From a virus (Duplodnaviria; Heunggongvirae; Uroviricota; Caudoviricetes), in the IMG/VR virus record IMGVR_UViG_2917393062_000002, positions 1-42,580 of that record: a stretch of DNA of 42,580 nucleotides; one strand, given 5' to 3'. Positions 10,645 through 29,660 of this stretch are shown here, piece by piece (the first letter of the stretch is position 1; every line of letters starts with the position of its first letter). The notes beneath the pieces were generated by a model that saw only the letters and a program-made list of their open reading frames with translations, did not search any database and was not told where the DNA came from. Made by a program: the position numbers and the translations under genes.

Positions 10645-11037
10645 TTGTCAATAATAAAACTCCTCTTCAGGAGGTTGGAATTTTTGGAGTAATTATGTGG
10701 AAAACTACAGGTGAGAAAGTGATTGTTGCATATGTTAATGGTAATGCGAAATACTCACGTATCGAAATGAGCGGTCAACATGCTCGATTGATTCGTGAGT
10801 AACAGGCATTACAGCAGCCCTTCAGTGAGGGGCTGCGATAATGCAACACAGGAATAAAAACCGGCCAGGGAGAATCCGTTAAAGATCTGCCGGTGGCGAA
10901 AAAGTGCCAGGCGCTCAACCTAAGCTGATTCTCTGTTGAATACAATAATTTTATTTACATCTATGTGAATGCGTAGGGCTTCTGTGATGCACGTCATGTT
11001 AACGATGTATGGATATGCGAATCATTCCCATTTTCAC

Positions 11038-11110
11038 GGGTCCTTCCTGAATTTTGGAACACCGAGGGGATGCGGACACGCAGAAATCGCCAAATTTTTG
11101 CATTTTCATC
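11038..11110 (+). repeat. Copy A of a conserved ~50-90 bp element (GGGTCCTTCCTGAAnnnTGGAACACCGAGGGGATGCGGACnCGCAnAAA...TTTTTGCATTTTCAT)
   Basis: Near-identical to copies at 19365 and 21835; lies about 120-165 bp upstream of helper terS. Confidence 0.6.
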
Positions 11111-11203
11111 GTTCATCACCACCACTGTAATTTATTGATAATGAAAGGTTAAAAAAAAGTTGGTGTCGAAAGTGCTCGTTTTTTGTTCATCACTGGAGGG
11201 TAA

Positions 11204-11704
11204 GTGGATAAGGAACTGAAACACCTTGTTCTTAATGTCAGCCAGTTGGCTGCGCTGTCTGGTGTGCACCGACAGACTGTCGCATCAAGAATCAAAAATG
11301 TCCGAACAGCGGGTGGACATGAAAGTAATCTCAAGCTGTATAAACTTACCGATATTCTGGCAGAGCTAATGAAATTGCCACCGCCTGTCGCTGAAGGGGA
11401 GATGGATCCCCATGACCGAAAAGCCTGGTATCAGTCAGAACGTGAACGCCTGAAATTCGAACAGGAGGTCGGAGAACTGATCCCTGCGTCTGATGTCGCT
11501 CGTGAATTTGCTGAAATGGCAAAGGCTATGGTGCAGGTTCTGGAAACTCTCCCCGATATTCTTGAACGCGATTGTGCTCTTGAGCCTTCGGCTGTCATGC
11601 GGGTGCAAAGCATTATTGATGATCTGCGTGACGAAATTGCACGACGGGTGGCAGATGACAGCAAACAGGAAGATGCAGAGGAGGAAAATCAGGAGGACGA
11701 ATAA
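11204..11704 (+). CDS. terS: Terminase small subunit (helper phage)
   Basis: GTG after GGAGGG; 166 aa; HTH-like N-terminus, acidic C-terminus; stop overlaps terL start; paralogue at 21994..22476. Confidence 0.65.
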   Translation: MDKELKHLVLNVSQLAALSGVHRQTVASRIKNVRTAGGHESNLKLYKLTDILAELMKLPPPVAEGEMDPHDRKAWYQSERERLKFEQEVGELIPASDVAREFAEMAKAMVQVLETLPDILERDCALEPSAVMRVQSIIDDLRDEIARRVADDSKQEDAEEENQEDE

Positions 11705-12699
11705 TGCCTGTGCAGGCGACCGCCAGATCGTTGAAACTGGATACAGGCCAGTTAATTAAAGCGCCGCGCAGAATGCCTGTTGCCGAAGCGGTACAAAAAT
11801 TTATGCGAGTCCCTACATCTGGTGGCAACTCTGTTCCGTGGGATCCGATGGTTGCACCGTATGTGATTGAACCCATGAACTGCCTGTCGTCCCGTGAGTT
11901 TGATGCGGTTGTTTTTGTTGGTCCTGCCCGTACGGGCAAGACTAACGGCCTGATTGATGGCTGGGTGGTTTATAACATTGTCTGCGATCCGTCTGACTTT
12001 TTGCTGGTGCAGATGACGCAGGATAAGGCGCAGGAGCACTCCAAAAAGCGCCTGGCAAGAACATTTCGTTGCAGCCCGGAGGTCAGAAAACGCCTCAGCC
12101 CACGCCGTAACGATAACAACGTTCATGACAAATATTTTCTGTCGGGCAGCTTTCTGAAAATCGGCTGGCCTTCCATCAATGTCATGTCATCCTCTGATTT
12201 TAAATGTGTGGCGCTGACTGATTACGACCGATTTCCTGAAGATATCGATGGCGAAGGTGATGGTTTCTCCCTGGCTTCAAAACGTACCACAACATTTATG
12301 TCAGCTGGTATGACGCTGGTGGAGAGTTCTCCCGGGCGTGAAATCACAAACAGCAAGTGGCGCAGAACGTCACCGCATGAAGCCCCGCCCACCACGGGGA
12401 TCCTTTCTCTGTATAACCGTGGCGATCGTCGTCGCTGGTACTGGCCTTGTCCGGATTGTGGTGATTATTTCCAGCCATCGATGGAGGCTATGACGGGATA
12501 TCGTGACAATCCTGATCCTGTAAAAGCCAGTGAAGCGGCTCATATATTGTGTCCGCATTGTGGCAGTCAAATCACTGCAGATATGAAACGTGAACTGAAT
12601 GGTCGCGGTGTCTGGTTGCGTGAAGGTGAGCAGATTGACAGAGAAGGGAATGTTACCGGAACGCCACGTCATTCAAGGATAGCCAGCTTCTGGATGTAG
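11704..12699 (+). CDS. terL: Terminase large subunit (GpA-like), N-terminal ATPase part, interrupted by island insertion
   Basis: 331 aa with P-loop VGPARTGKT and CPDCG...CPHCG Zn-finger-like motif; ends ...IASFWM then TAG supplied by inserted DNA; continues in frame at 22703 after removing the insertion. Confidence 0.8.
   Translation: MPVQATARSLKLDTGQLIKAPRRMPVAEAVQKFMRVPTSGGNSVPWDPMVAPYVIEPMNCLSSREFDAVVFVGPARTGKTNGLIDGWVVYNIVCDPSDFLLVQMTQDKAQEHSKKRLARTFRCSPEVRKRLSPRRNDNNVHDKYFLSGSFLKIGWPSINVMSSSDFKCVALTDYDRFPEDIDGEGDGFSLASKRTTTFMSAGMTLVESSPGREITNSKWRRTSPHEAPPTTGILSLYNRGDRRRWYWPCPDCGDYFQPSMEAMTGYRDNPDPVKASEAAHILCPHCGSQITADMKRELNGRGVWLREGEQIDREGNVTGTPRHSRIASFWM
12688..12699 (+). other. Left junction (attL-like) with core CTGGATG
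   Basis: TTCTGGATG|TAGGGTACATTTC: terL sequence changes to AT-rich island DNA; same 7-bp core at 22696..22702. Confidence 0.5.
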
Positions 12700-12860
12700 G
12701 GTACATTTCTTACCTGTTTTTATGTTCTGGTGTCGTTTTATAGTCTTTTCAATGAGTTGTGATTTTTTGAGTTTCCTCTCTTTACTTGATAATGAGTTAG
12801 TTTATCGCTTGTTATCGACTTGAATGGACTACATGACGGACTAAAAAATGAGGGCGACAG

Positions 12861-14099
12861 ATGTCGGTAAAGCCATTAACCGTGACTGAAGTTAAGGGGA
12901 TGAAACCACGTGAAAAGGACTATGCTGTTTATGATGGGTTCGGTTTATTGCTGAATGTGAGTAAAGCTGGTGGGAAAGTGTGGCGTTTTCGTTATAGCCA
13001 TCCGATAACGAAGAAACGGCAGACATACACGATAGGGCGTTTTCCTGAATTCTCACTCGCGGAAGCACGGGAAGTACGTGATGAACTTCGGCGAATGATT
13101 GCACGTGGAGTTGATCCAGTGACAGAGAAGAAAAATCGTAAAATTGAGATGGCACTAAAAAATCTACAGACATTTGAATCTGTTGCTAATGCATGGGTTG
13201 CCTTTAAAAAGGGAGCAGAATTGCGGAAGCCTACGTTAAATAACATCGAATATGAAGTATATAAATATCTTGTTCCTTTCTTTGGTAAATATAGTATAGA
13301 TAAGATTACAGCGCCATTAGCAATTAAGATACTGGATGCAGTATCTGATAAAAATGCGTTGCAAAAAAAATTAATATCAAGATTAAATGAAATTATGAAT
13401 TATGCCGTAAATTGTGGTGCGTTAAAAATAAATCCATTGCTTAAAATAAAGACTGCATTCGCTGGAAAGAAAAATAAATCATTGGCTGCGTTACCTATAG
13501 AAAGATTACCTGAATTTCTGAGTTGGTGGGATAGTGTGCCTCATAACTACCAAATAGCGCATAATGCACTTTTATTCCAGGTATTGACCATGGTCAGGCC
13601 GGGAGAGGCGATCCAGGCAGAGTGGTCAGAGATAGATTTTGATGCTGGTCTGTGGGTTATTCCTGAGCATAAAATGAAATGCCATCGTGAACATGTTGTG
13701 CCCCTGTCATCACAGGCCATTAGCATCCTGAGAACAATGCAGGAAATAAAAAGAGGGCGTTATGTATTCTATTCATCCAGAACCAAAGACGCGCCTATGG
13801 GGAGGAAAACTATAAATACTGCGATTACCTCCAGTAAGTTCAAAGGGATTGTAACGTTACATGGTTTTCGTTCGATGTGGAGTACGCTTTTAAATGAGGA
13901 AGGATTTAACCCCGATGTAATTGAGGCTGCATTAGCACATAAAAGTGGTGATAAAATAAGAGATATTTATAATAGAACTACTTATTTAGAACAACGCAAA
14001 ATTATGATGCAATGGGTAGGCGATTTTTTTGATGAGGCGAGAAAAGGGGTAATTAATAGATCCTGTGGTAAGAAAGGTTTGAGAATAGTAAATGGTTGA
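12861..14099 (+). CDS. int: Tyrosine integrase, P4-type
   Basis: 412 aa; P4-type N-terminal arm-binding signature (GGKVWRFRYSHP...FPEFSLAEAREVRDELRRMIARGVDP); C-terminal catalytic region with HGFRS and conserved Tyr; about 160 bp from attL. Confidence 0.85.
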   Translation: MSVKPLTVTEVKGMKPREKDYAVYDGFGLLLNVSKAGGKVWRFRYSHPITKKRQTYTIGRFPEFSLAEAREVRDELRRMIARGVDPVTEKKNRKIEMALKNLQTFESVANAWVAFKKGAELRKPTLNNIEYEVYKYLVPFFGKYSIDKITAPLAIKILDAVSDKNALQKKLISRLNEIMNYAVNCGALKINPLLKIKTAFAGKKNKSLAALPIERLPEFLSWWDSVPHNYQIAHNALLFQVLTMVRPGEAIQAEWSEIDFDAGLWVIPEHKMKCHREHVVPLSSQAISILRTMQEIKRGRYVFYSSRTKDAPMGRKTINTAITSSKFKGIVTLHGFRSMWSTLLNEEGFNPDVIEAALAHKSGDKIRDIYNRTTYLEQRKIMMQWVGDFFDEARKGVINRSCGKKGLRIVNG

Positions 14100-14111
14100 G
14101 GAGTTCAGCAA

Positions 14112-14315
14112 ATGAATACCAATGAAGATATTTTATTTACTAAAGACGTAATGAAAATTTTGCGCTATGGGGCAATGAGCGCATTCATTAATTTCTGGAA
14201 AGATGAAAGCAATGGTTTTCCTCAACCGTTCAGAATTGGGCGGCGGCATACCTGGCACCGTAGAGATGTAGAGGCATGGTTAGATAAACAACGAGAACAG
14301 GCCAATCCCCACTAA
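14112..14315 (+). CDS. AlpA-like small DNA-binding protein (excisionase/regulator candidate)
   Basis: 67 aa; AlpA-like pattern (FPQPFRIGRRHTWHRRDVEAWL); immediately downstream of int. Confidence 0.5.
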   Translation: MNTNEDILFTKDVMKILRYGAMSAFINFWKDESNGFPQPFRIGRRHTWHRRDVEAWLDKQREQANPH

Positions 14316-14374
14316 TAATATCTTTCATACCCCGCACACAATGCGGGGTTTTTTGTATGTGAGGTAAAAAAACG

Positions 14375-14956
14375 ATGAATAAAAATATTGCCGTGACGGG
14401 CAAGGGTGACGCTCGTCCAGTGAAAAATTTCTGCAATATTCGTGATCTAATCGTTCTGCGCTTTGATGGCGTGGATGTTCGCGTGGTGTATCTGAATGGC
14501 GATCCGTGGTTTGTTGCAAAGGATGTTTGTGAAGCTCTGGAAATAAGCAACTCACGCGATGCTCTAAAAGCTCTGGATGTGGATGAGAAGAATACCGTCG
14601 CTTTAAGCTACGGTATTCGCGGAAATCCAAATCATAGCGTCGTTTCTGAATCTGGTTTTTACAAGCTGATCGCCAGAAGTCGCAAAGCTGTTACTCCTGG
14701 CACGTTCGCCCATCGTTTCAGTAATTGGGTATTCAGAAATGTGATACCGGGTATCAGAAAAACGGGGGCTTATGGTATCCCGTGGGGCGCATTACAGGAT
14801 TTTTCCCGCCGTAAAGAGCAATATCAGATAAGTGCCAGCGAGAAGGGGAGGGAGCTACAGGCATGTAAGCGCAAAAAGCGTGAGCTGGAGGAAGAAGAAA
14901 AAAGGCTGATACGTGAATATCAGCCTGAGTTTTACTTTGACAACTGCATTCAGTGA
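14375..14956 (+). CDS. Bro-N domain protein (antirepressor-like)
   Basis: 193 aa; N-terminal Bro-N-like motifs (WFVAKDVCEALEI, SESGFYKLIARSRK, FSNWVFRNVIPGIRKTGAYG). Confidence 0.6.
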   Translation: MNKNIAVTGKGDARPVKNFCNIRDLIVLRFDGVDVRVVYLNGDPWFVAKDVCEALEISNSRDALKALDVDEKNTVALSYGIRGNPNHSVVSESGFYKLIARSRKAVTPGTFAHRFSNWVFRNVIPGIRKTGAYGIPWGALQDFSRRKEQYQISASEKGRELQACKRKKRELEEEEKRLIREYQPEFYFDNCIQ

Positions 14957-15049
14957 CAAAACAAAGGCGACCGGGGGCGGTCGCCAATGGGAAAACACTA
15001 AACATAAGCACGGGGATGATAGCCGCTATCAGGCTGGTGGGCAATGCAA

Positions 15050-15238
15050 TCAGTCTTGTTCAGTTCGTTGCCATACCTGCAATGAGCGCGTTTCCCTGTA
15101 CTCTTTAAGGAATTGCTCAAGGGCAAAAGCACATGGCGCGAATCTTTCTGATTCATGCTCTATCTTTCTGCGCCGTCTTTTCCGTGCCGGTGATAATGTT
15201 TTGGTCAATTCTTTATCGGTCATTGTGTTGTCCTGCAT
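15050..15238 (-). CDS. Hypothetical basic protein, possibly co-transcribed with the RHH-like gene
   Basis: 62-aa minus-strand ORF downstream of the RHH-like gene; weak RBS. Confidence 0.25.
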   Translation of the reverse strand: MQDNTMTDKELTKTLSPARKRRRRKIEHESERFAPCAFALEQFLKEYRETRSLQVWQRTEQD

Positions 15239-15280
15239 AGCAATGCGCCGTAATACCTTACACCACGGCGCTGGTGATGG

Positions 15281-15460
15281 TTATTCCTGCTCTTTGGCCT
15301 TGCGACGCTGGCGGTATTCAACTTCTCGCTTTAATGCTGCTGTTACAAACTGCCCTGTACTTTCACCAGGCATTTTTACCGCCTCAACATTGTTCATAAC
15401 TTCATGCGGAACCCTTGCCGCAACTGTTTGTGATTTTGCGTTTACTGCTTTTGTCGCCAT
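15281..15460 (-). CDS. Small ribbon-helix-helix-like DNA-binding protein (candidate island repressor), 59 aa
   Basis: Minus-strand ATG at 15460 preceded by AAGGGG; MATKAVNAKSQTVAARVPHEVMNNVEAVKMPGESTGQFVTAALKREVEYRQRRKAKEQE (beta-strand then two helices); divergent from operator repeats; below ORF-track cut-off. Confidence 0.4.
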   Translation of the reverse strand: MATKAVNAKSQTVAARVPHEVMNNVEAVKMPGESTGQFVTAALKREVEYRQRRKAKEQE

Positions 15461-15510
15461 GTTGTGTACCCCTTACAAAAAACAAATGCAGTATGCAGGA
15501 AAAAAAATAA

Positions 15511-15562
15511 GTGTTCAACACTTGACGTGTTTAACACCAGGGCTTAAATTGGTGTTCAACAC
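15511..15562 (+). promoter_or_regulatory. Three palindromic operator-like sites GTGTT(C/T)AACAC overlapping a candidate rightward promoter
   Basis: GTGTTCAACAC at 15511 and 15552, GTGTTTAACAC at 15527; TTGACG at 15522 and TTAAAT about 17 bp downstream; between divergent RHH gene and rightward operon. Confidence 0.5.
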
Positions 15563-15658
15563 CTTGTTGATGCAAGGTGCAGAAACGACGAAACCCGGCA
15601 GTGCGCTAACACTAACCGGGCTTCTAACCACCAACGATAGAAAGCGTATCGAGGTAGC

Positions 15659-15866
15659 TATGTTAAATCATACCACACACCCGCAAGGGCGGGACTCGCA
15701 CAACCTGAATAAATACATCTGGCGTTTTATCGCCCTGAGCACGGCACAACCGCGCGTGATTACCATTGAGGCCACCAGCGAACAGGAAGCACGCCAGCAA
15801 TCTCCTGATGGCTGTGTGATGGTATTCGCCGCCCGTATTCGCCAGGGGGTGCACCATGTGCAATAA
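15659..15866 (+). CDS. Hypothetical protein (first gene of rightward island operon)
   Basis: ATG after GAGG; 68 aa C-terminal part of a 317-aa track ORF whose upstream part looks non-coding. Confidence 0.35.
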
Positions 15867-16086
15867 AAACACGCCGGACGCAGCAGGCGAAGCATTGAAA
15901 GTACTGATACATGCGCTTGTGGATATAAATTGCATGGTAGAGATCATGGAGAAGAAATCACAGTCGGAGTACGACAAAAGAAAATTTAAAACAATAAAAA
16001 TAATTACCAAAAACTCACTGACAAAAGCTACAGACATCCTCAATGAGGACACTAAAAGAATCAGGGGGAAACTGTGTGATGCATAA
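15856..16086 (+). CDS. Hypothetical protein
   Basis: 76-aa ORF overlapping upstream stop; AGGGGG upstream. Confidence 0.35.
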   Translation: MCNKNTPDAAGEALKVLIHALVDINCMVEIMEKKSQSEYDKRKFKTIKIITKNSLTKATDILNEDTKRIRGKLCDA

Positions 16087-16306
16087 AATACCTTTTGATG
16101 TTCTTATTCATTCTGAAAACGCATTAATCCGCGCAAAGGAAATGGAGGCATTATTACTTAAGTTAATGGAAGTGCCGGAAAATGGCGATGAATCATATCC
16201 CATGATGTTTTCTGCCGTGCACACATTATTAACGCCAGTAATTAACGAATTAAATACGGTGATGGCAATTCACGAGAATAATAAAACGCATCACACCGGA
16301 GAATAA
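16079..16306 (+). CDS. Hypothetical protein (start 16079, or 16043 per ORF track)
   Basis: In-frame ATG at 16079 preceded by GGGGAAA; overlaps upstream stop. Confidence 0.35.
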   Translation: MHKIPFDVLIHSENALIRAKEMEALLLKLMEVPENGDESYPMMFSAVHTLLTPVINELNTVMAIHENNKTHHTGE

Positions 16307-16311
16307 AAACC

Positions 16312-16611
16312 ATGAAACAGAAAAATTCTGGCTTTACTGCCAGCGGCCTCTCTCGGCCTGAAATCCGCCCCGGCGATATTTTCAAAGATAAATACGGCGG
16401 CACTGTAACGATTAAAAGCGTGGCGGGACGGTGTGTTACTTACCGCCGTGATGGGTACGGCTATGACTGCGTGATGCCTGTTTATCAGTTCCGGCGTGAT
16501 TTTTCTCTGGTACAGAACGCAACACGCGGTAAGCCCACCAGCAGGGAAAAAGCACGGGAAAATATTAAGAAAATAAAAAGCATGCTCAGCGCATCCAGAG
16601 GTAAAAAATGA
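16312..16611 (+). CDS. Hypothetical basic protein
   Basis: 99 aa; GGAG upstream; stop overlaps primase start. Confidence 0.4.
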   Translation: MKQKNSGFTASGLSRPEIRPGDIFKDKYGGTVTIKSVAGRCVTYRRDGYGYDCVMPVYQFRRDFSLVQNATRGKPTSREKARENIKKIKSMLSASRGKK

Positions 16612-18356
16612 AACTGGCACCGAACGTAAAAAAACAGCCTCGCGGAATAAAAAACAAAGACACAGAGGTAATTATTTTCGCGGGTAGTGATGCCTGGTCG
16701 CATGCGCAACAGTGGCAGGAGAAGGACGGTCCCGCATCCGGCGATAATGTGCCGCCTGTGTGGCTTGGGCCAAATCAGCTTGCCGAACTTGATGCGCTGA
16801 AAATTGTTCCGGATGGAAAAAAACGCGTAAGGCTGTACCAGGCCGGAGAACTGGATTTAGTGGAGACCAAAAAGATTGGTCAGAAGCTGGCGGCGGCAGA
16901 TATTCAGGATGCGAATTTTTACCCTGAAGGAATGCACGGTCAGAAGTGTGAAAACTGGCGGCGCTATTTGAATGCTGAGCGTGAAAATATTGCCGCAGGG
17001 CTTACCATGCCGGAGCAGAAAAATACGCAACTGGCACAGATGGCAGACAGTGAGCGCGCACAGATGCTTGCTGGTCGGTTTGATGGCGTATGTGTGCATC
17101 CGGAAAGTGAAATCGTTCACGTCTGGCGCGGCGGGGTATGGTGTCCGGTCAGCACAATGGAACTGAGTCGCGAAATGGTGGCGATTTATTCAGAACATAA
17201 GGCCACTTTCAGCAAGCGCGTAATCAGTAACGCCGTTGAAGCGTTAAAAGTTATTGCCGAACCAATGGGCGAGCCGTCCGGTGATTTGCTGCCGTTCGCC
17301 AATGGTGCGCTTGACCTGAAAACGGGGGAATTTTCCCCGCACTCGCCGGAGAACTGGATCACCACGCACAACGGTATTGAATACACGCCGCCAGTACCAG
17401 GGGAGAATATCCGCGACAACGCGCCAAACTTTCATAAATGGCTTGATCACGCTGCCGGAAAAGATCCGGGCAAGATGATGCGTATATGCGCCGCGCTATA
17501 CATGATTATGGCGAACCGGTACGACTGGCAGATGTTTATTGAGGCCACCGGAGACGGCGGGAGCGGCAAGAGCACTTTCACGCACATAGCCAGCCTTCTG
17601 GCAGGGAAACAGAACACAGTAAGCGCTGAGATGACATCGCTTGATGATGCTGGTGGGCGTGCGCAGGTTGTCGGGAGTCGGCTTATTGTCCTGGCAGACC
17701 AGCCGAAATATACAGGCGAAGGCACGGGCATCAAGAAAATCACGGGCGGCGACCCCGTGGAAATTAACCCGAAATATGAAAAGCGTTTCACAGCGGTAAT
17801 CAGGGCGGTTGTGCTGGCAACCAATAATAACCCGATGATATTCACCGAACGGGCCGGAGGCGTGGCACGTCGTCGCGTGATTTTCCGTTTCGACAATATC
17901 GTCAACGAGGCCGAAAAAGACAGGGAACTACCGGAAAAGATTGCGGCTGAAATCCCCGTCATTATCCGCCGATTACTGGCGAACTTTGCAGACCCTGAAA
18001 AGGCGCGGGCTTTACTACTGGAACAGCGTGACGGTGATGAAGCACTGGCGATAAAGCAGCAAACGGATCCGGTTATTGAGTTTTGCCAGTTCCTGAATTT
18101 TCTGGAGGAAGCACGCGGCCTGATGATGGGCGGCGGTGGCGATTCCGTGAAGTACACGACCAGAAACAGCCTTTACCGCGTCTATCTGGCGTTTATGGCA
18201 TACGCAGGCAGAACCAAACCACTAAACGTAAATGACTTTGGCAAGGCCATGAAGCCAGCCGCAAAAGCTTACGGACATGAATATATTACGCGAAAAATTA
18301 ATGGGGTGACGCAGACTAACGCAATAACAACCGACGATTGCGACGCGTTTTTATAA
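16608..18356 (+). CDS. Primase/helicase-type replication protein (P4 alpha / D5-like NTPase domain)
   Basis: 582 aa; Walker A GDGGSGKST, Walker B-like LIVLAD; immediately followed by an iteron array. Confidence 0.75.
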   Translation: MKLAPNVKKQPRGIKNKDTEVIIFAGSDAWSHAQQWQEKDGPASGDNVPPVWLGPNQLAELDALKIVPDGKKRVRLYQAGELDLVETKKIGQKLAAADIQDANFYPEGMHGQKCENWRRYLNAERENIAAGLTMPEQKNTQLAQMADSERAQMLAGRFDGVCVHPESEIVHVWRGGVWCPVSTMELSREMVAIYSEHKATFSKRVISNAVEALKVIAEPMGEPSGDLLPFANGALDLKTGEFSPHSPENWITTHNGIEYTPPVPGENIRDNAPNFHKWLDHAAGKDPGKMMRICAALYMIMANRYDWQMFIEATGDGGSGKSTFTHIASLLAGKQNTVSAEMTSLDDAGGRAQVVGSRLIVLADQPKYTGEGTGIKKITGGDPVEINPKYEKRFTAVIRAVVLATNNNPMIFTERAGGVARRRVIFRFDNIVNEAEKDRELPEKIAAEIPVIIRRLLANFADPEKARALLLEQRDGDEALAIKQQTDPVIEFCQFLNFLEEARGLMMGGGGDSVKYTTRNSLYRVYLAFMAYAGRTKPLNVNDFGKAMKPAAKAYGHEYITRKINGVTQTNAITTDDCDAFL

Positions 18357-18370
18357 TTTTTGGCAATTGC

Positions 18371-18590
18371 TGTCTACCTTGTCTACCTGATTACATAAAA
18401 GTTGTTTTAATTCAGTGTATTAATTTAGGTAGACAGCTTTTTTTTACTGTCTACAAGCTATCTACACTGTCTACCTGTTTTTGTAGCCAGCCGGAGGGAT
18501 GAGTAGACATCAGGTAGATAGTGGTTTTTTACTGTCTACATCCATTAAACCCGCGTCATTACTGGCCTGAGCATCTATCAGGTAGACAGA
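18371..18590 (+). repeat. Iteron array / candidate island replication origin
   Basis: At least 10 copies of TGTCTAC(C/A) or its complement GGTAGACA in both orientations, interspersed with A/T tracts, directly downstream of the primase/helicase gene. Confidence 0.75.
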
Positions 18591-18645
18591 GTAGACAAGG
18601 TGGGGGTAGGCCTAAAACTTTTTAAACGAGGGGGTAAAAATAAAA

Positions 18646-18903
18646 ATGCACACATCAGAAAAATTTAACAATCAGAAGAAATCACATAACCGCGCCATTG
18701 ACCTTACAGAGCACTGGCTGAGGGTGGCGATAAAAATCATCGACCGCAACGCGGGAGAAGGATACGCGAAAGCGCATCCCGAACTGATAAGCGCATTCAT
18801 GAACACAGCGGCGGCAAACTTTGCCACGCTGACAGAACGGGAGATTGCGGAAGCGGAACAGGTGACAACTATCAACGTTAAAACCGGAGAACAGACAGCA
18901 TGA
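18646..18903 (+). CDS. Hypothetical protein
   Basis: 85 aa; GAGGGGG upstream; stop overlaps SSB start. Confidence 0.4.
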   Translation: MHTSEKFNNQKKSHNRAIDLTEHWLRVAIKIIDRNAGEGYAKAHPELISAFMNTAAANFATLTEREIAEAEQVTTINVKTGEQTA

Positions 18904-19322
18904 CAGCACAGATAGCGGCTTACGGGCGGCTGGTGGCTGACCCGCAGTTAAAGACCACCAGCAAGGGAACACAAATGGCGATGGCGAGTATGGCTGTTCC
19001 CCTGCCGTGCAGCCAGGCCGATGACGGAACGGCGACAATGTGGTTATCCGTCCTGGCGTTTTGCAGACAGGCCGACGCACTGGCAAAACACCGCAAAGGC
19101 GAACTGGTGAGCGTGGCGGGTAACATGCAGGTAAGCCAGTGGACAGGCCAGAACGGCGAAACGCGGCAGGGCTGGCAGGTTATCGCAGACAGCGTAATCA
19201 GTGCGCGAACGGCGCGACCGGGCGGCAAAAAAGGCCAGCAGGGCCAGGCTACTGACGCACTGAACAGGGCAAAACAACAGGCGGGAAATGATGATCCGTA
19301 CGGGGATAACATACCGTTTTAA
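18900..19322 (+). CDS. ssb: Single-stranded DNA-binding protein (SSB-like)
   Basis: 140 aa; OB-fold-like core (LSVLAFCRQADALAKHRKGELVSVAGNMQVSQWTGQNGETRQGWQVIADSV), Gly/Gln linker and acidic tail ending DNIPF like SSB DDDIPF. Confidence 0.7.
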   Translation: MTAQIAAYGRLVADPQLKTTSKGTQMAMASMAVPLPCSQADDGTATMWLSVLAFCRQADALAKHRKGELVSVAGNMQVSQWTGQNGETRQGWQVIADSVISARTARPGGKKGQQGQATDALNRAKQQAGNDDPYGDNIPF

Positions 19323-19338
19323 GCAACGAGTGACAGAA

Positions 19339-19362
19339 GCCGGGATTTTTCCCGGTTTTTTT
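19339..19362 (+). terminator. Rho-independent terminator
   Basis: CCGGG-atttt-CCCGG + TTTTTTT after ssb. Confidence 0.65.
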
Positions 19363-19364
19363 AT

Positions 19365-19450
19365 GGGTCCTTCCTGAAAAATGGAACACCGAGGGGATGC
19401 GGACGCGCAGAAAACGGCTGGTTTTTGCATTTTCATGGTGGCGGCAGCAT
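19365..19450 (+). repeat. Copy B of the conserved element
   Basis: TTTTTTTATGGGTCCTTCCTGAAAAATGGAACACCGAGGGGATGCGGACGCGCAGAAAA...GCAGCAT; identical to copy C over about 55 bp including spacing from the upstream terminator. Confidence 0.6.
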
Positions 19451-19730
19451 GTGTGATAATTAATTGATAATTAAAAATTATTTCTGTTTTCACCTGTACA
19501 ATCTTTTTTCTCCCCCTGTCATCAGACCAGTTTGCAATTAATTGAAATATATAAACAAATTTGTTTTTCACCTGCCAAATGGAGCTGCCTATGTCAAATG
19601 TGATTGGGATTGGTGATGCTTATCACTGGCACACAAAAATGAATATTGCATATTTTGCAATGCAATTGATCATCATTGCATTTTGATCAACACTGCACAC
19701 TTCAAATATCAGTCTGAAACGAGGTGTTAC

Positions 19731-19934
19731 GTGAACGAAAAGAAAGCTGTATCGGTTTATCTCGACAATGAAACGGCGCTTGCCCTGTACCGTTTGCGCG
19801 AAGATATTCGCAAGAAAAATGCAGAAACGGGAATGGATCTTCCCACGCCAACAGTCGGCTGGCTTGCCCGTTCATTGTTGCGTCAAAGCCTGGGAATTAA
19901 GGCAGACAAAAAAGATTTGCCTCATGAGGGGTAA
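19731..19934 (+). CDS. Hypothetical small protein
   Basis: GTG 7 nt after GAGG; 67 aa; immediately upstream of island capsid gene. Confidence 0.35.
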   Translation: MNEKKAVSVYLDNETALALYRLREDIRKKNAETGMDLPTPTVGWLARSLLRQSLGIKADKKDLPHEG

Positions 19935-19936
19935 GG

Positions 19937-21781
19937 TTGATGGAAATTTCATTGTATGAGCCAATCGAAGGCGTAACCGCAAGACAGTTCCGCGATTCAC
20001 TTATGGCTGCAAAAGGCCCGGTTACGGTTGCCATAAACAGCGGTGGCGGAAATGTAACTGACGGCATGGCGATGTTTAACGCCCTGAGAACGTACAAAGG
20101 CCACACGGTCGCAAGAATCGACGGTATCGCCGCATCAATGGCTACCATTGTTGCGCTCGGTGCCCGGCGTGTCGTGATGGCTGATAACGGCTGGTGGATG
20201 ATCCATAACCCGTGGGGCGTTTTTGTTGGTGAATCGGAAGATCTCCGCAAAAAAGCCGACATGATGGAAAAAATCGGCAAGGCAATGCTTGATACCTACG
20301 TTGCCAAAACCGGATTACCGGAATCAGAAATCAAAGCCATGATGGATGCTGAAACATGGCTGACGGCTGAGGAAGCGAAAGAAAAAGGATTTATTGATGA
20401 AATTTATCCGGCAGAGGGACAGGCATTAGCCATGGCCCCTGGTTGCGGATCACTGGTAGAGAAATTTACCAGAACGCCGGAAAGCATCATCGCATCGATG
20501 AAGAAAGGCGACACGGGATCAGCAAACGAAAGAGAGAAGCGAAAAAAAGAAGCCGACGTTTTGTTTGCTTACTGGAAGAATTCTTCGTATGAGTGGTTGC
20601 CAGGAATTGTTGAAGAATTTATCAGCGGTTCCATCACTGCCGAAGAAGCACGTAAAAAACACTTAGAAAAACTGGCGGAAGAGACAACGCCGTGCGCAGG
20701 ACCAGGAGCAATGAACATGTATGCAGGTAACGGTAATATTGTTGGGGATTCAGTAAAAGCGGCGCTTATGGCACGCAGTGGACTGGCGGATGTGGAAAAA
20801 GATAACCGCTATAACGGTTATTCATTGCGGGAACTGGCGCGCGCTTCTCTGGTGGATCGTGGGGTAAGCGGCATTCCAGGTAATCCGCTGGGCATGGTTG
20901 GAATGGCGTTTACTCACAGCAGTAGTGATTTTGGCGGCATTCTTGCGGACGTGGCGCATAAATCATTACTGAAAGGCTGGGAAGATTCGCCGGAGACGTT
21001 CCACGCCTGGACGAAAAAAGGCACTCTGACAGATTTTAAGGTTGCCCATCGTGTTGGTATGGATGGTTTTAAATCTCTGCGAAAAGTTTTGCCAGGCAGC
21101 GAATATAAATACGCGTCCACGTCCGATCGCAGCGAGCCAATTGCACTGGCAACTTATGGCGAACTGTTCAGCATAGATCGCCAGGCAATCATCAATGACG
21201 ACATGAGCGCACTGACTTCAATCCCCCAGCAAATGGGGGCAGCAGCAAGCCGCACAGTCGGGGATCTGGTTTATGCCGTTCTCGTGGCCAATCAGAAGAT
21301 GGGCGATAAAAACCCGCTCTTTGATGCGAAACACAGCAATCTGATTAACAGCGAACTTGATATTCCAGGCCTGAGTGCAGCCCGTAAAGCTATGCGTATG
21401 CAAAAAAATAATGCTGGTGCTGTACTGAATATTCCGCCTCGTTTCCTGTTAGTTCCGGTAGAACTGGAAGACAGAGCAACCCAGCTTATTCGTTCTACGT
21501 CGCTACCAGACGCGCAGAACAGCGGTGTGTTTAACCCATACAATGATGCACTGACAGTAATCACAGAGGCGCGACTTGATGCCGACAGCGTGAAATCCTG
21601 GTATCTGCTTGCGGGTCAGGGAAGTGATACAATTGAAGTCGCTTATCTCGATGGTATTGATACCCCGTACCTGGAACAGCAGCAGGGCTTTACGGTTGAC
21701 GGCGTAACTTTCAAAGTGCGCATTGATGCCGGAGTTTCTCCTCTGGACTGGCGCGGGATGGTTAAGTCATCAGGTGGTTAA
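19937..21781 (+). CDS. Island prohead protease (ClpP-like)-linker-major capsid protein fusion
   Basis: 614 aa; N-terminal ClpP/S14-like domain; C-terminal ~330 aa about 70% identical by eye to the helper capsid domain (GNGNIVGDS...IEVAYLDGIDTPYLEQQQGFTVDG). Confidence 0.8.
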   Translation: MMEISLYEPIEGVTARQFRDSLMAAKGPVTVAINSGGGNVTDGMAMFNALRTYKGHTVARIDGIAASMATIVALGARRVVMADNGWWMIHNPWGVFVGESEDLRKKADMMEKIGKAMLDTYVAKTGLPESEIKAMMDAETWLTAEEAKEKGFIDEIYPAEGQALAMAPGCGSLVEKFTRTPESIIASMKKGDTGSANEREKRKKEADVLFAYWKNSSYEWLPGIVEEFISGSITAEEARKKHLEKLAEETTPCAGPGAMNMYAGNGNIVGDSVKAALMARSGLADVEKDNRYNGYSLRELARASLVDRGVSGIPGNPLGMVGMAFTHSSSDFGGILADVAHKSLLKGWEDSPETFHAWTKKGTLTDFKVAHRVGMDGFKSLRKVLPGSEYKYASTSDRSEPIALATYGELFSIDRQAIINDDMSALTSIPQQMGAAASRTVGDLVYAVLVANQKMGDKNPLFDAKHSNLINSELDIPGLSAARKAMRMQKNNAGAVLNIPPRFLLVPVELEDRATQLIRSTSLPDAQNSGVFNPYNDALTVITEARLDADSVKSWYLLAGQGSDTIEVAYLDGIDTPYLEQQQGFTVDGVTFKVRIDAGVSPLDWRGMVKSSGG

Positions 21782-21807
21782 CAGATAATCAGGCATGTTA
21801 TGTTTTT

Positions 21808-21833
21808 TTGCGGCCTTCGGGCCGCTTTTTTTA
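21808..21833 (+). terminator. Rho-independent terminator
   Basis: GCGGCC-ttcg-GGCCGC flanked by T-runs. Confidence 0.65.
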
Positions 21834-21834
21834 T

Positions 21835-21920
21835 GGGTCCTTCCTGAAAAATGGAACACCGAGGGGATGCGGACGCGCATAAATCGAGAGATTTTTGATA
21901 TTTTATGCGTGCAGCAGCAT
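21835..21920 (+). repeat. Copy C of the conserved element
   Basis: Same core as A and B; about 110-160 bp upstream of island terS. Confidence 0.6.
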
Positions 21921-21993
21921 AAGTTTAATGCTTTGATTTTTAACATTATTGATTTGTTTTGTTGAAAAAGCGACCGTGCAGTGAGGTGGTAAA

Positions 21994-22476
21994 GTGGAAC
22001 TGAGCAAAATGCAGGTTAATGTCTCACAACTGGCAGACCTGGTAGGCATGAATCGAAATCTTGTTTCACGCCGTTTGCGTGAGCTGGAGCTTGTTGGCGG
22101 GAATGGTGAGAATCTTAAACTGTATGAACTCGGTCCGGCACTTCAGGCACTACTGACCCCATCAATGAAAGAAAATGGTGAAATGTCACCACAGGATCGG
22201 AAAGCCTGGTATCAGTCAGAAAATGAAAGGCTGAAATTTGAAGCAGCTTCACGTGAATTACTCCCTGTCGAAGAGGTGGCCCGTGAATATTCATCTCTGG
22301 CTAAAGCCGTAGTCATGGTGCTGGAAACGTTGCCGGATATTCTTGAGCGCGATTGCGCTCTCCAGCCTTCCGCAGTCATACGAGTGCAACGCATTATTGA
22401 TGATCTACGTGATGAAATGGCGAGAAAAATTGCAGAAAGCGATTCAGATAATGGCTGGCCTGCATGTACAAGATGA
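21994..22476 (+). CDS. terS: Island terminase small subunit paralogue
   Basis: 160 aa; C-terminal half almost identical to helper TerS (VLETLPDILERDCAL.PSAV.RVQ.IIDDLRDE), N-terminal HTH region divergent. Confidence 0.65.
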   Translation: MELSKMQVNVSQLADLVGMNRNLVSRRLRELELVGGNGENLKLYELGPALQALLTPSMKENGEMSPQDRKAWYQSENERLKFEAASRELLPVEEVAREYSSLAKAVVMVLETLPDILERDCALQPSAVIRVQRIIDDLRDEMARKIAESDSDNGWPACTR

Positions 22477-22692
22477 GTGAACTGCTGGAAAGAAACGGCT
22501 ACGGGAAAGAACCATTATCGTGATGGTATTGCGATATCAAAATTCATTTATAGCGACATATTTAGCTTTTAATTAGTATTGCCGCCTTTTTTTCTTTTTT
22601 ATCACTTAAACAGGTACTAAATCTTGGACTATGTAGATGGGGCCATAGCAAAATAGTATTTTATAATCATTTAGTTACCTTTTATTTACTTC

Positions 22693-22702
22693 TTCCTGGA
22701 TG
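22693..22702 (+). other. Right junction (attR-like) with core CTGGATG
   Basis: AT-rich island DNA ...TTCTTCCTGGATG|GAAGGGCCGG resumes terL coding sequence. Confidence 0.5.
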
Positions 22703-23827
22703 GAAGGGCCGGCTGCTGCGTATCAGACCTGGGCGCAACTGGTTTACAAACTACTGACTGCTGAGCAGGAATATGAAGCCACAGGCAGTGAGGAAACACT
22801 GAAGGCGGTGATTAACACCGACTGGGGATTACCTTATTTGCCTCGTTCCGCAATGGAGCTGCGTAGTGCGGATGTTCTGATGCAGCGGGCCGAGGACTAC
22901 GGTAAGCGCCTGGTACCGCCGAAAGTACGTTTTCTTATTGCGGCTGTGGACGTGCAGGGCGGGAAGAACCGACGGTTTGTGGTGCAGATTATTGGCTATG
23001 GCGAGGACGGCGAACGCTGGCTGGTGGACCGTTATAACATCCGACAGTCATTGCGCTGCGATGAAAATGGCGAAGCATTACCTGTGCATCCCGGGGCTTA
23101 TCCTGAAGACTGGCAGTTGCTGGTCACCGATGTACTGGAGAAAACGTATCCGCTCCAGTCCGATCCGGCCCGCAGAATGCCTGTACTGGCAATGGCGGTG
23201 GACAGTGGTGGTGAGGACGGGGTGACGGATAACGCCTATAAATTCTGGCGAAAATGTCGTCAGGATGGACTGGGGCGACGGGTTTTTCTGGTAAAGGGAG
23301 ACAGCACGAAACGCCAGAAAATTATCACCATCACACACCCGGATAATACCGGGCGAAGCGATCGTCGTGCTGATGCTCAGGGAAAGGTGCCGGTATATCT
23401 CCTGCAGACAGACCTGCTGAAAGATCAACTAAGCAATAACCTGCAACGTGAAATGCCCGGACCGGGCTACATTCATTTTCCTGACTGGCTCGGGGAGTGG
23501 TTTTATGAAGAGTTGACCTATGAGGAACGCGGTGCTGACGGGAAATGGCGCAAGCCGGGAAAAGGGAATAACGAAGCGTTTGACCTTTTTTGCTATGCCC
23601 ATGCTGTCGCCATTCTGCGTGGCTATGAAAAAATCCGTGACTGGAGCAATCCTCCCCAGTGGGCAAGGGGGCAGGATGCTGATGCGGGGGCTTCAGCAGA
23701 CAGACGTTCTTCCGGCACAGTGGACAAGAAAAACGTTGCCGGAAGAGATGAGCGGCAAAAAGCAGCGTCGCCGGAAGCGTTATCCGGAAACTGGTTATCA
23801 CTACCCCGAAACGGAGGATGGTTGTGA
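22700..23827 (+). CDS. terL: Terminase large subunit, C-terminal (nuclease) part
   Basis: 375 aa GpA-like C-terminal domain; in frame with 11704..12696 once 12697..22702 is removed. Confidence 0.8.
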   Translation: MEGPAAAYQTWAQLVYKLLTAEQEYEATGSEETLKAVINTDWGLPYLPRSAMELRSADVLMQRAEDYGKRLVPPKVRFLIAAVDVQGGKNRRFVVQIIGYGEDGERWLVDRYNIRQSLRCDENGEALPVHPGAYPEDWQLLVTDVLEKTYPLQSDPARRMPVLAMAVDSGGEDGVTDNAYKFWRKCRQDGLGRRVFLVKGDSTKRQKIITITHPDNTGRSDRRADAQGKVPVYLLQTDLLKDQLSNNLQREMPGPGYIHFPDWLGEWFYEELTYEERGADGKWRKPGKGNNEAFDLFCYAHAVAILRGYEKIRDWSNPPQWARGQDADAGASADRRSSGTVDKKNVAGRDERQKAASPEALSGNWLSLPRNGGWL

Positions 23828-24051: not shown

Positions 24052-25563
24052 ATGGGTTTTTTTGATAAAGCACTTGGCGCAATTGCGCCAGGGTGGGCGG
24101 TTTCGCGCGCCAGAAACAAAATGCTGCTGAGAGCTTATGAGGCGGCGCAGCCTTCACGCCTGAATAAAGCCCGGCGCGAGAGTCGTTCTGCCGAGACTGC
24201 GGTTTTTTCTGCCTGTACCTCGTTAAGGGAGCAGGCCAGGGCGCTGGATGAAGATCACGATATCGTGATTGGTCTGCTGGATAAGCTGGAAGAGCGGGTT
24301 ATTGGCGCGCAGGGGATCCAGGTTGAACCACAACCACTGAGAAGCGATGGCACCCTGCATGAATCGCTGGCAGAGCAGATCTCGGCATTGTGGTCTGAAT
24401 GGTCTGTTCGCCCTGAGGTCACGGGGATGTTCACCCGTCCGGAGGCCGAACGGATGGCATTGCGATCTGCTTTGCGTGATGGCGAGATGTTCGTACAACT
24501 GGTGCGTGGTCCTGTCGCCGGTCTGAATCATTCCACTGTGGTGCCATTATCACTGGAACTTCTCGAAGCAGATTTTGTTCCGGTCAGTCTGAACACGAAC
24601 GCGGGTCAGCAAGTCCGTCAGGGCATTATTCTTAACAACTGGGGGCGGCCTGTAGGGTATCGGGTTTATAAATACCATCCTGCAAATATGCGTGGATTCA
24701 GCGCCGATCTCAAAACTGTTCACGCAGACAGCATGCTTCATCTGGCGATGCGGAAACGGCTTCATCAGGTGAGAGGTGTCAGCCTGTTACATGGTGTGAT
24801 TCGCCGGATTGCTGATCTGAAAGATTACGAAGAATCAGAGCGTGTGGCTGCCCGTATTGCTGCCGCGCTGGGTTTCTACATTAAGCGTGGTGATGCCGCC
24901 AGCTTTCCGACGGATAACGACTGGACACCCACAGAACAAAAACCCCGGTATTTTGATATTTCACCGGGCATGATTTTTGACGAACTGGCCCCCGGTGAAG
25001 ATCTGGGGATGGTGGAGTCGAATCGTCCGAATGTTCATCTTTATGAATTCCGGAACGGGCAGTTGCGTGCTGTGGCTGCCGGAACCCGTGGCAGTTATTC
25101 CAGTATTGCCCGTGACTATAACGGCTCCTACAGTTCGCAGCGTCAGGAGCTGGTGGAAGGTTACGAAGGCTACGGGGTTTTACAGCAGTGGTTTGTCGGT
25201 CAGTACAGCCGCCCGGTGTACCGGGCATGGCTGGAGCAGGCGATACCTTTTCTTGAAATTTCTCCTGATGTGGATATGTCCACACTTTTCAATGCCACTT
25301 ATCTTGGCCCGGTGATGCCGTGGATTGATCCGGTGAAGGAGGCTGCAGCATGGCGGGCCATTCTTCGCGGTGGTGCCGGGACGGAGGCTGAGTGGATACG
25401 TGCCCGTGGGCAGTCACCGCAGGAGGTCAAACGTCAGCGACTGCGTGAAACTGAATTTAACCGGGAAAACGGGCTGGTGTTCGATTCTGACGCCGCTAAC
25501 GATAAAGGAGCGATCCCTGATGCAGCAAATGATAAACCCGCGTCTTCGCGGGACGATGATTAA
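24052..25563 (+). CDS. Portal protein (lambda B-like)
   Basis: 503 aa; size and position between W and protease/capsid; acidic C-terminus. Confidence 0.75.
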   Translation: MGFFDKALGAIAPGWAVSRARNKMLLRAYEAAQPSRLNKARRESRSAETAVFSACTSLREQARALDEDHDIVIGLLDKLEERVIGAQGIQVEPQPLRSDGTLHESLAEQISALWSEWSVRPEVTGMFTRPEAERMALRSALRDGEMFVQLVRGPVAGLNHSTVVPLSLELLEADFVPVSLNTNAGQQVRQGIILNNWGRPVGYRVYKYHPANMRGFSADLKTVHADSMLHLAMRKRLHQVRGVSLLHGVIRRIADLKDYEESERVAARIAAALGFYIKRGDAASFPTDNDWTPTEQKPRYFDISPGMIFDELAPGEDLGMVESNRPNVHLYEFRNGQLRAVAAGTRGSYSSIARDYNGSYSSQRQELVEGYEGYGVLQQWFVGQYSRPVYRAWLEQAIPFLEISPDVDMSTLFNATYLGPVMPWIDPVKEAAAWRAILRGGAGTEAEWIRARGQSPQEVKRQRLRETEFNRENGLVFDSDAANDKGAIPDAANDKPASSRDDD

Positions 25564-29090: not shown

Positions 29091-29660
29091 ATGGCTGAAC
29101 CCTTATGCATGGCATCCTGGCACACTGCTGTGCTGGATGCCCTGAAAAAACTTAAATGGATCAATGATGCGGACACCTATCCGGAACGGGTCACGCAACT
29201 GGTCACTCCGGCGGTATTTCTGGCGGTGGATGGCTGGGATGCGAAAAGCAATGCAGACGGGCAGATGACGGTGGTGTTGTCTGCCGCGCTGTGGGTGCTG
29301 GTTGACCGTGCCGGTGAGCCGGATAAAGAAAAAAAAGAAGAACGCAAGGCGATAAAGCCGGATATTTTTATCCGTTCGGCGGCCGCCGCGTTGTCGCACT
29401 GGCTCGACGGGCAGACGTTCGGACTGGCAAATGTGGAGCCTGCCATTTTTATTTCGGCGGACGCAGATGAAACCGATCCGCGCCTGGATGATTATCTGGT
29501 CTGGCAGATTTCATTTAACCAGACGGTGACGTTTGGTATGGATCCCTTTGCCACGGATAACCTGCCGCTACAGCGGGCCTGGCTGGGCGTGGCACCGGAG
29601 ATCGGGCGACAGCATGTGGATGATTATCGGCTGATTTTTGAGGGAAAGCCACGTGAATGA
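29091..29660 (+). CDS. Hypothetical virion protein (possible tail completion)
   Basis: ATG after GAGG; 189 aa; stop overlaps the gpV-like gene. Confidence 0.35.
   Translation: MAEPLCMASWHTAVLDALKKLKWINDADTYPERVTQLVTPAVFLAVDGWDAKSNADGQMTVVLSAALWVLVDRAGEPDKEKKEERKAIKPDIFIRSAAAALSHWLDGQTFGLANVEPAIFISADADETDPRLDDYLVWQISFNQTVTFGMDPFATDNLPLQRAWLGVAPEIGRQHVDDYRLIFEGKPRE

Follow-up and report, generated by a model that had tools for sequence, protein, structure and literature searches.

Satellites residing within the late genes of their own helper prophages have been described as helper-embedded phage-inducible chromosomal islands (HE-PICIs), with 491 reported examples that occupy 14-15 sites distributed over nine late genes, among them large-terminase genes of the Terminase_1 family (Tommasini, Mageeney and Williams 2023, NAR Genom Bioinform, PMC10111431). 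That survey took one integrase as its seed and attributed this tropism to a single clade, and one member, Eco567.11capE of Escherichia coli NRG857c (11capE), was verified by quantitative PCR and sequencing to excise late, after composite replication (PMC10111431). In the present analysis, an island splitting the large terminase gene (terL) of a prophage was characterized in a viral record of 42,580 nucleotides (IMGVR_UViG_2917393062_000002, Caudoviricetes), the whole of which is referred to as the window. Very probably, this island is a PICI-type satellite whose own tyrosine integrase inserted it into terL of a prophage with a lambdoid head and a contractile tail, in late-operon orientation and with the life cycle proposed below. 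A preliminary description of the same DNA had regarded a satellite within its helper's terL as a novelty, which did not hold, given that embedding in late genes, large-terminase genes included, was published in 2023 (PMC10111431).

The window element shares with HE-PICIs the general design of a satellite of about 10-11 kb lying inside, and co-oriented with, a prophage late gene that is split without replacement sequence and restored by precise deletion, as well as helper-shared DNA resembling a cohesive-end (cos) region and occasional off-target copies. In relation to 11capE, it presents the same order of zones and genes (integration, Bro, replication and late), a captured capsid gene, and a replication module composed of DUF4222, primase and single-strand DNA-binding protein (SSB) genes, with 42% amino-acid identity between the primases and 85-89% nucleotide identity in the Icd and ssb regions (85% for the ssb region). 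Otherwise, the window integrase (Int) scored only 86.7 bits against that of 11capE, with 26% identity, which is far below the 400-bit entry threshold of the published set and places it outside that clade. Moreover, the doubled TGTATTGC arm motif of HE-PICIs (tgTGTATTGCa), for which the window had no match with up to three mismatches, is replaced by a doubled GGACTA; the former was located in 11capE at -81.5 and +133.5 (stated as about -81 and +132), and the latter at -68 and +133 in the window. The window island also differs in having its own small terminase gene (terS), a protease-capsid fusion and two cos-like copies.

The target itself, a GpA-type terL interrupted between its ATPase and nuclease regions, was absent from the 14-15 sites in the accessible portions of the HE-PICI site lists: the string 'GpA' occurred in none of the supplementary files as far as their displayed content goes, the terminase site labels shown were all Terminase_1, and none of six junction 10-12-mers was present in the attL/attR files (PMC10111431). 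Among the papers searched, no other describes the GpA-terL site. The window element is thus a helper-embedded satellite with a distinct integrase lineage, arm motif and unreported target, its own terS and duplicated cos-like DNA, and it is not a new category.

Site-specific insertion of the island into terL

The island was shown to have entered cleanly and site-specifically through a 7-bp overlap, YTGGATG, placed at the boundary between the ATPase and nuclease domains of terL (Table 1). As the preliminary description had read from the sequence, CTGGATG is found at both junctions, the N-terminal fragment is stopped by a TAG of island DNA (12697-12699) immediately after the core, and the C-terminal fragment resumes at 22700. 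Mismatches directly flank both sides of each copy of the repeat. In silico joining of 11704-12696 to 22703-23827, with the computed junction ...TTCTGGATG|GAAGGGCC..., generated a single open reading frame (ORF) of 705 aa, in which the Pfam domains GpA_ATPase and GpA_nuclease covered residues 42-304 (E=3e-79) and 326-642 (E=1e-88), respectively. The joined protein aligned colinearly over its full length with Gifsy-2 TerL (70% identity) and lambda gpA (29%), and therefore has the single-chain, two-domain organization of GpA-family large terminases. Since the island carries no replacement terL sequence, the gene is broken for as long as the island remains integrated.

The rebuilt allele also occurs naturally. 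The intact TerL of a prophage from E. coli P393-F10 was identical to the joined protein at 704 of 705 residues without gaps (98.1% nucleotide identity), and the helper DNA 3' of the island was colinear with this island-free prophage and 97.7% identical to it over 14.6 kb. By exact-sequence look-up, the joined 705-aa TerL was found 100% identical and uninterrupted on at least eight contigs from other assemblies, where the terS-terL-portal-capsid neighbourhood was the same, and the 40 nucleotides spanning the junction in contig L085 were exactly those of the in silico join. The central claim of the preliminary description, that a ~10 kb island lies inside terL and that its removal restores in frame one GpA-type terminase of ~705 aa, was consequently confirmed with exact coordinates: homologues did not end naturally near residue 331 but were full-length, and the closest relatives were without the 10 kb rather than sharing it as ancestral DNA. 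RefSeq labels both terL halves pseudogenes, as seen in E. coli EC42405. In addition, window positions 9940-31781 were 100% identical to GCA_004745115.1 contig PDHZ01000026.1 (9991-31832), whose gene calls list neither terL half.

The first core base covaried between attL and attR within a copy, being C/C in the window and T/T in copy L022, as expected if strand exchange spans exactly the 7 bp. This core length had been considered unusual, a view that was abandoned, as 7 bp is the standard overlap of tyrosine recombinases. Two putative arm-type integrase sites flank the core in the computed attP (...CTTCTTCCTGGATG|TAGGGTACATT...), each formed by co-oriented hexamers with a 12-bp period, and these were the only matches to the doubled motif in the 42.6 kb.

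The terL|island junction was detected in 88 of 5,426 complete E. coli genomes (~1.6%), and the island left end in 89, with carrier serotypes including O157:H7, O121:H19, O145:H28, O111:H8 and O45:H2. Across these 89 genomes the left end was 95-98% identical, whereas the flanking terL was only 72-87% identical. The attL 24-mer was present on 31 IMG/VR contigs, in 29 cases after an in-frame terL fragment ending in ...SRIASFWM, once after a frameshifted terL and once off target. The 29 fragments represented three sequence lineages and the window terL a fourth, so that at least four lineages have been entered, a recurrence of the junction far in excess of chance. The off-target copy (contig L008, 1-1330) was located at the intergenic sequence TTTTTGGATG, downstream of a LysR-type regulator gene, which shows the island to be mobile. 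The same junction was found beyond E. coli, in Salmonella and Rahnella, and the island measured 10.0-10.7 kb wherever attR was in range. The attL 24-mer had no match among GTDB species-representative genomes, because the element is sporadic within species and is missed by representatives.

Integrase lineage and probable tropism for late genes

The preliminary description of a foreign integrative element with a P4-type integrase some 160 bp from the left junction proved accurate, the gene starting 164 bp after the junction and its product being 33% identical to P4 Int. The window Int was 38-40% identical to integrases of the transfer-messenger RNA (tmRNA)/tRNA type, and was nearer to tmRNA/tRNA-adjacent integrases and CP4-57-type IntA than to the 11capE Int. 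The usual preference of P4-type integrases for tRNA genes, invoked in the preliminary description, applied to distant relatives (35-44% identity; Vibrio, Colwellia and others), which adjoin tmRNA, tRNA-Ser or tRNA-Met genes, but not to the closer ones examined. In this respect, 11 of the 11 relatives with context examined (44-93% identity) lay directly 3' of, and co-oriented with, prophage late genes, with the qualification that these constitute a sampling and not a survey and that several targets were deduced from the upstream fragment, attR being beyond range. The relatives with 44-75% identity (L073-L084) came from Salmonella, Rahnella, Lelliottia, Klebsiella, Raoultella, E. coli, Citrobacter and Providencia, with only their upstream side visible.

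Several of these relatives appear to interrupt terL itself. The Salmonella integrase (75% identity) follows a 333-aa terL fragment with the ATPase domain only and has the same junction sequence, which is also found with the Rahnella integrase (66%), downstream of a DUF1441 terS. Similarly, upstream of the Klebsiella quasipneumoniae integrase (56%) stands a 334-aa piece of a Nu1-type terL whose ATPase profile is complete, the domain boundary being the apparent target in Nu1-type as well as DUF1441-type terminases. The integrase of Lelliottia (61%) follows a 195-aa terL fragment ending at position 127 of the 247 of the profile, which would represent another terL site, internal to the ATPase domain. 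Other late genes also appear to be occupied, such as a major capsid gene (PF09950) in Raoultella, where the integrase (51%) follows a 153-aa fragment covering profile positions 4-65 of 251, while for four more relatives (44-62%) the genes immediately upstream, as candidate targets, encode an S78 protease, a DUF2213 head protein, a Terminase_2 subunit and tail-tip proteins. In E. coli PapRG-04-4 (NZ_CP049201.1, ~2858180-2869900; L071 6377-8188 / L072), a sister island of 11.15 kb with the same layout and an Int of 58% identity is inserted in a tail-module gene of a contractile-tail prophage, with the core TCTCTTTTG, and joining its flanks in silico restored a 189-aa ORF homologous to window positions 29091-29660.

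Of six relatives checked, five had the doubled GGACTA-type motif 5' of int, the most divergent of them with 51% Int identity. In a rough neighbour-joining tree without bootstrap, the late-gene integrases grouped together, nested among those of the tmRNA/tRNA type and far from the 11capE Int. It is reasonably likely that they represent a second, previously unreported clade of the CP4-57/P4 family, about 26% identical to the 11capE Int and marked by the doubled GGACTA, in which insertion into late genes evolved independently. If true, late-gene embedding would be a convergent strategy of satellites and not a quirk of one integrase lineage.

Gene content, helper relations and proposed cycle

The features usually found in Gram-negative PICIs, that is, a size of ~10-15 kb, a terminal int, an alpA-like regulator, a primase/replication module and no lysis or tail genes, were all recognized in the island (Table 1), together with the four-zone PICI order of integration (int and the helix-turn-helix (HTH) gene), Bro, replication (Icd, DUF4222, primase and SSB) and late genes (capsid fusion and the island small terminase gene, terS'). 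The named island genes are co-oriented with helper terS, terL and portal, the exceptions being two small genes at 15050-15460. For every island ORF of at least 50 aa, one or more of the Pfam, NCBIfam and PHROGs libraries were searched, and no portal, tail, lysis or terL gene was found in the island among these ORFs and library scans. Judged by its gene repertoire, the insert is a PICI-type satellite.

Table 1. Positions of island, attachment-site and helper features in the window
Feature	Position	Strand	Remarks
Helper Q antiterminator	6216-6596	+	Pfam Phage_antitermQ E=8.5e-54; upstream of lysis genes, terS, terL
Helper putative cos region	11031-11146	+	Core 11038-11077; ~130-165 bp 5' of terS; homologous to two island segments
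Helper small terminase subunit (TerS), DUF1441 family	11204-11704	+	Pfam DUF1441 E=4e-46; PHROG 141 'terminase small subunit' E=8e-70
terL-N fragment	11704-12699	+	331 aa; complete GpA ATPase domain; C-terminus ...RIASFWM; frame stopped by island TAG
attL core CTGGATG	12690-12696	.	7-bp overlap region; direct repeat with attR
Island	12697-22702	+	10,006 bp; 46.5% GC; AT-rich arms of 32-35% GC
Putative arm-type integrase site, left attP arm	12826-12843	+	GGACTA-N6-GGACTA; +133 from core centre
Tyrosine integrase, P4/CP4-57 family	12861-14099	+	Pfam Arm-DNA-bind_3, Phage_int_M, Phage_integrase
AlpA-position excisionase/regulator-like HTH protein, 67 aa	14112-14315	+	PHROG 66 'excisionase and transcriptional regulator' E=1e-6
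Strong intrinsic-terminator-like hairpin	14329-14349	+	3' of int and HTH gene; 8-bp stem with 6 GC pairs, then T6
Bro-N antirepressor-family protein	14375-14956	+	Pfam Bro-N E=2e-18; PHROG 2593 anti-repressor E=5e-82
Second small opposite-strand gene	15050-15238	-	Beside YlcI/YnfO gene
YlcI/YnfO-family small protein	15281-15460	-	NCBIfam NF041551 E=2e-16; PHROGs
Promoter-like site before Icd-like gene	15522-15550	.	Promoter scan
Icd-like protein	15660-15866	+	Opens replication operon; NCBIfam phage_ICD_like E=1e-19; gene call in L067
DUF4222 protein	16312-16611	+	Pfam
D5-type primase/helicase	16608-18356	+	Pfam
SSB	18900-19322	+	Pfam SSB
Island cos-like copy 1	19358-19475	+	Core 19365-19404; 80% identity to helper 11031-11146
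ClpP-type prohead protease fused to major capsid protein	19940-21781	+	Pfam CLP_protease and Phage_capsid_4; gene call; ATG 19940 is the annotated start
Terminator-like hairpin after capsid gene	21810-21825	+	Precedes cos-like copy 2
Island cos-like copy 2	21828-21937	+	Core 21835-21874; homologous to helper 11031-11146
Island small terminase subunit (TerS'), DUF1441	21994-22476	+	Homologue of helper TerS
Putative arm-type site, right attP arm	22614-22631	+	GTACTA-N6-GGACTA; -68 from core centre
attR core CTGGATG	22696-22702	.	Direct repeat with attL
terL-C fragment	22700-23827	+	375 aa; nuclease domain; begins MEGPAAAYQTW; start is the ATG of the repeat

The protein in the alpA position remained below the cut-off of Pfam HTH_17 and shared 39% identity with the 11capE HTH protein along 31 aa. 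Concerning the central island region, a 317-aa ORF at 14913-15866 (GTG start, the longest in that stretch) is probably not a gene, as it has no family match and overlaps the YlcI/YnfO and Icd-like genes on both strands. P4-type CI/seqA immunity RNAs (Rfam C4, isrK) were not detected in the island even at E values up to 1, and a SymR-antitoxin-like Rfam match in the divergent regulatory region (15587-15659, minus strand; 32.8 bits against a gathering threshold of 61, E=0.004) is probably due to chance. In the zone occupied by Bro-N in the window, the Rahnella (L074, 5512-6178) and Citrobacter (L083, 5876-6470) islands carry a BrnT/BrnA toxin-antitoxin on the opposite strand.

The helper late region begins with Q, followed by holins, endolysin, terS and terL, all on the plus strand. 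The segment upstream of helper terS is a putative cos region, judged from its position as in lambda, and its 40-nt core had three matches in the window against 0 expected, and was never found in shuffles. The two island copies are co-oriented, 2.47 kb apart and each preceded by a terminator-like hairpin. The island of E. coli EC42405 also has two cos-like copies (24114-24348 and 26654-26718) matching its own helper; since the copies of each island fit the respective helper, the late zone is matched to the resident helper, which agrees with 'late gene capture' as put forward by Tommasini et al. (PMC10111431). The late zone (19300-22702) was not covered to 80% or more by any record among complete E. 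coli genomes, and the late module is therefore a rare mosaic variant. TerS' was 60% identical to helper TerS, with an uneven distribution: identity was 42% in the first 62 columns of the alignment and 72% in the last 87. Lambda Nu1 contacts cosB through its N-terminus and gpA through its C-terminus and, by analogy, such a gradient may reflect retained TerL binding along with altered DNA recognition. The protease-capsid fusions of island and helper were 52% identical. The proposal of a phage parasite within the terL of its own helper was thus supported by the satellite genes, the otherwise colinear late region and the restoration of terL by precise deletion.

Regarding the remaining helper regions, the segment 23827-42580 is a mosaic of modules that, with the lambda-type GpA terminase, includes a Phage_portal_2 portal, a ClpP::capsid head and a contractile tail (sheath, tube and baseplate V/W/J-like proteins). 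In the early region, Rfam matches to isrK (77.7 bits) and C4 antisense RNA (75.6 bits) were found at 2695-2880, the only such pair in the window, with an ORF6N-domain gene just downstream (2935-3474); this set looks like a P1/P7-type c4-ant immunity cassette, and belongs to the helper and not to the island. Genes for tRNA-Thr(TGT) and tRNA-Gly(TCC) are located at 7373-7526, between Q and the lysis genes.

From the arrangement of these elements we infer excision, read-through expression and packaging as follows. After helper induction, late transcription antiterminated by Q would run from terS through terL-N into the island, overriding its two terminators (14329 and 21810) and reading int and the excisionase-like gene; in a consensus scan, the stretch from attL to int showed no σ70-like promoter. 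Int and the excisionase-like protein would then recombine attL with attR, yielding a 10-kb circle and an exactly rebuilt terL, and the island would replicate by means of its own primase and SSB. Helper TerL, probably with TerS', would package the island from a cos-like site into capsids possibly influenced by the island protease-capsid fusion. In a new cell, Int would seek the conserved ...SFWM|EGPAAA... site, present only with a suitable helper, and rare secondary sites would serve as a fallback. Because terL is split and the island has no terL, helper packaging would have to await excision, as had been anticipated; likewise, the island would depend on the helper for induction and packaging, because it is devoid of terL, portal and tail genes and its cos-like DNA matches the helper. 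A cis-regulatory model of late excision had already been proposed for HE-PICIs, with 11capE as experimental precedent (PMC10111431).

Some points weigh against this cycle. The tentative assignment of the 67-aa HTH protein as an excisionase comes from a single match (PHROG 66, E=1e-6), the promoter scan was a crude consensus scan, and a pair of cos-like copies ~2.5 kb apart does not sit easily with simple cos packaging. The helper ends lie outside the window. The attP junction CTTCTTCYTGGATGTAGGGTACA was absent from IMG/VR and JGI metagenome contigs, an absence considered uninformative on excision, and Tommasini et al. recovered no virions and found many helpers that look truncated, so that some copies may be stranded (PMC10111431). 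These last observations, with the pseudogene labels of both terL halves, would agree with a stranded insertion, in which the island entered site-specifically and then lost excision, the split terL marking a dead, domesticated prophage with no working cycle in this strain. This explanation is unlikely, considering that the int ORF is intact and 93-98% conserved over ~90 E. coli genomes, that att sites and arm motifs are all preserved, that no disruption other than the island was seen in the helper late region along its 14.6 kb of colinearity, and that insertions are known from no fewer than four terL lineages and from an off-target site.

It is still less probable that the element acts mainly as a prophage or host switch that withholds the prophage from lytic completion, with its own transfer being secondary. 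Inactivation of terL without replacement would suit such regulated gene integrity, for which comparable switches of bacterial genes are known (PMC10111431), but a full satellite kit (primase, SSB, cos-like sites, TerS' and capsid homologue) would be superfluous, and the lysis genes are upstream of terL, so that a terL block would not save an induced cell. A functional split terminase, whose ATPase and nuclease halves would cooperate as two proteins without excision, the second being translated from the core ATG, is very improbable: the break does fall exactly between the Pfam domains and the core does supply an in-frame ATG, but the sequence upstream of 22700, ttatttacttcttcctggATG, has no Shine-Dalgarno motif, the nearest upstream ORF ends 220 bp away, making translational coupling unlikely, and all uninterrupted homologues examined are single chains. 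An assembly artefact, or ancestral phage DNA lost by relatives, had nothing in its favour and can practically be dismissed in view of junctions recurring in more than 100 independent assemblies, complete genomes among them, of the closest terL relatives without the segment, and of island ends better conserved than the terL around them. The exact restoration of terL, the natural empty sites, the recurrent junctions, the off-target copy, the covariation, and the gene content and order favoured the satellite reading, as did the helper Q gene with its co-oriented late operon, the helper-matched cos-like copies, the doubled arm motifs at P4-like distances from the core and the precedent of 11capE. 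An intron, intein or homing-endonuclease origin of the split gene was ruled out by the tyrosine integrase, the att repeats and the 10 kb of satellite genes.

Significance and comparison with other systems

This locus is of value mainly in hinting that embedding in late genes arose more than once. An integrase only 26% identical to the founder of the HE-PICI set presents the same tropism, as do its own relatives down to 44% identity, which lifts the restriction to one clade and points to selection on the satellite lifestyle instead of a mechanistic quirk of one enzyme. Moreover, GpA-type terminases are added as a target whose site is kept from E. coli to Salmonella, Rahnella and Klebsiella, in the latter in Nu1-type genes. 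Beyond capsid supply, a block at terL would gate the packaging of both partners. As the terL halves are annotated as pseudogenes, prophages of this kind may be scored as defective despite being possibly conditionally competent.

Among other satellites, the chromosomal Gram-negative PICIs, such as EcCICFT073 (Fillol-Salom et al. 2018, 2019), resemble the window island in the int/alpA-like/primase layout, in size, in relying on a lambdoid cos helper and in interfering with packaging specificity. EcCICFT073 is reported to redirect packaging with Rpp (Fillol-Salom et al. 2019), whereas the window island carries a TerS homologue instead. EcCICFT073 lacks terS (as summarised in PMC10111431). The chromosomal PICIs also differ in occupying chromosomal sites and making contact with the helper only in trans.

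Satellite P4 shares with the window element the integrase family (33% identity), an Icd-like gene and a D5/alpha-type primase, as well as the attP organization, with tandem 12-bp arm repeats ~64-87 bp to one side of the core and ~122-146 bp to the other (NC_001609 annotation). Otherwise, P4 integrates at a tRNA-Leu gene and relies on P2 instead of a lambdoid head module, and the psu, sid, delta and epsilon families had no match among island ORFs of at least 50 aa in the Pfam/NCBIfam/PHROGs scans, which sets the island apart from P4-like satellites.

The capsid-forming PICIs (cf-PICIs) and the SaPIbov5-type cos satellites (Ccm) are similar in having their own capsid homologue and small terminase, a combination that suggests capsid remodelling and redirection of packaging. 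However, cf-PICIs have a complete head module (portal, connectors and terL), whereas the island has only the protease-capsid fusion and TerS'; it must therefore borrow portal and TerL, and does not qualify as a cf-PICI.

Finally, cases of regulated gene integrity or active lysogeny, such as phi10403S in Listeria comK and skin in Bacillus sigK, are comparable in that a gene is split without replacement and its frame is restored by timed, precise excision. In the window, however, the split gene belongs to another mobile element, the helper, and the likely beneficiary of the arrangement is the satellite and not the cell.

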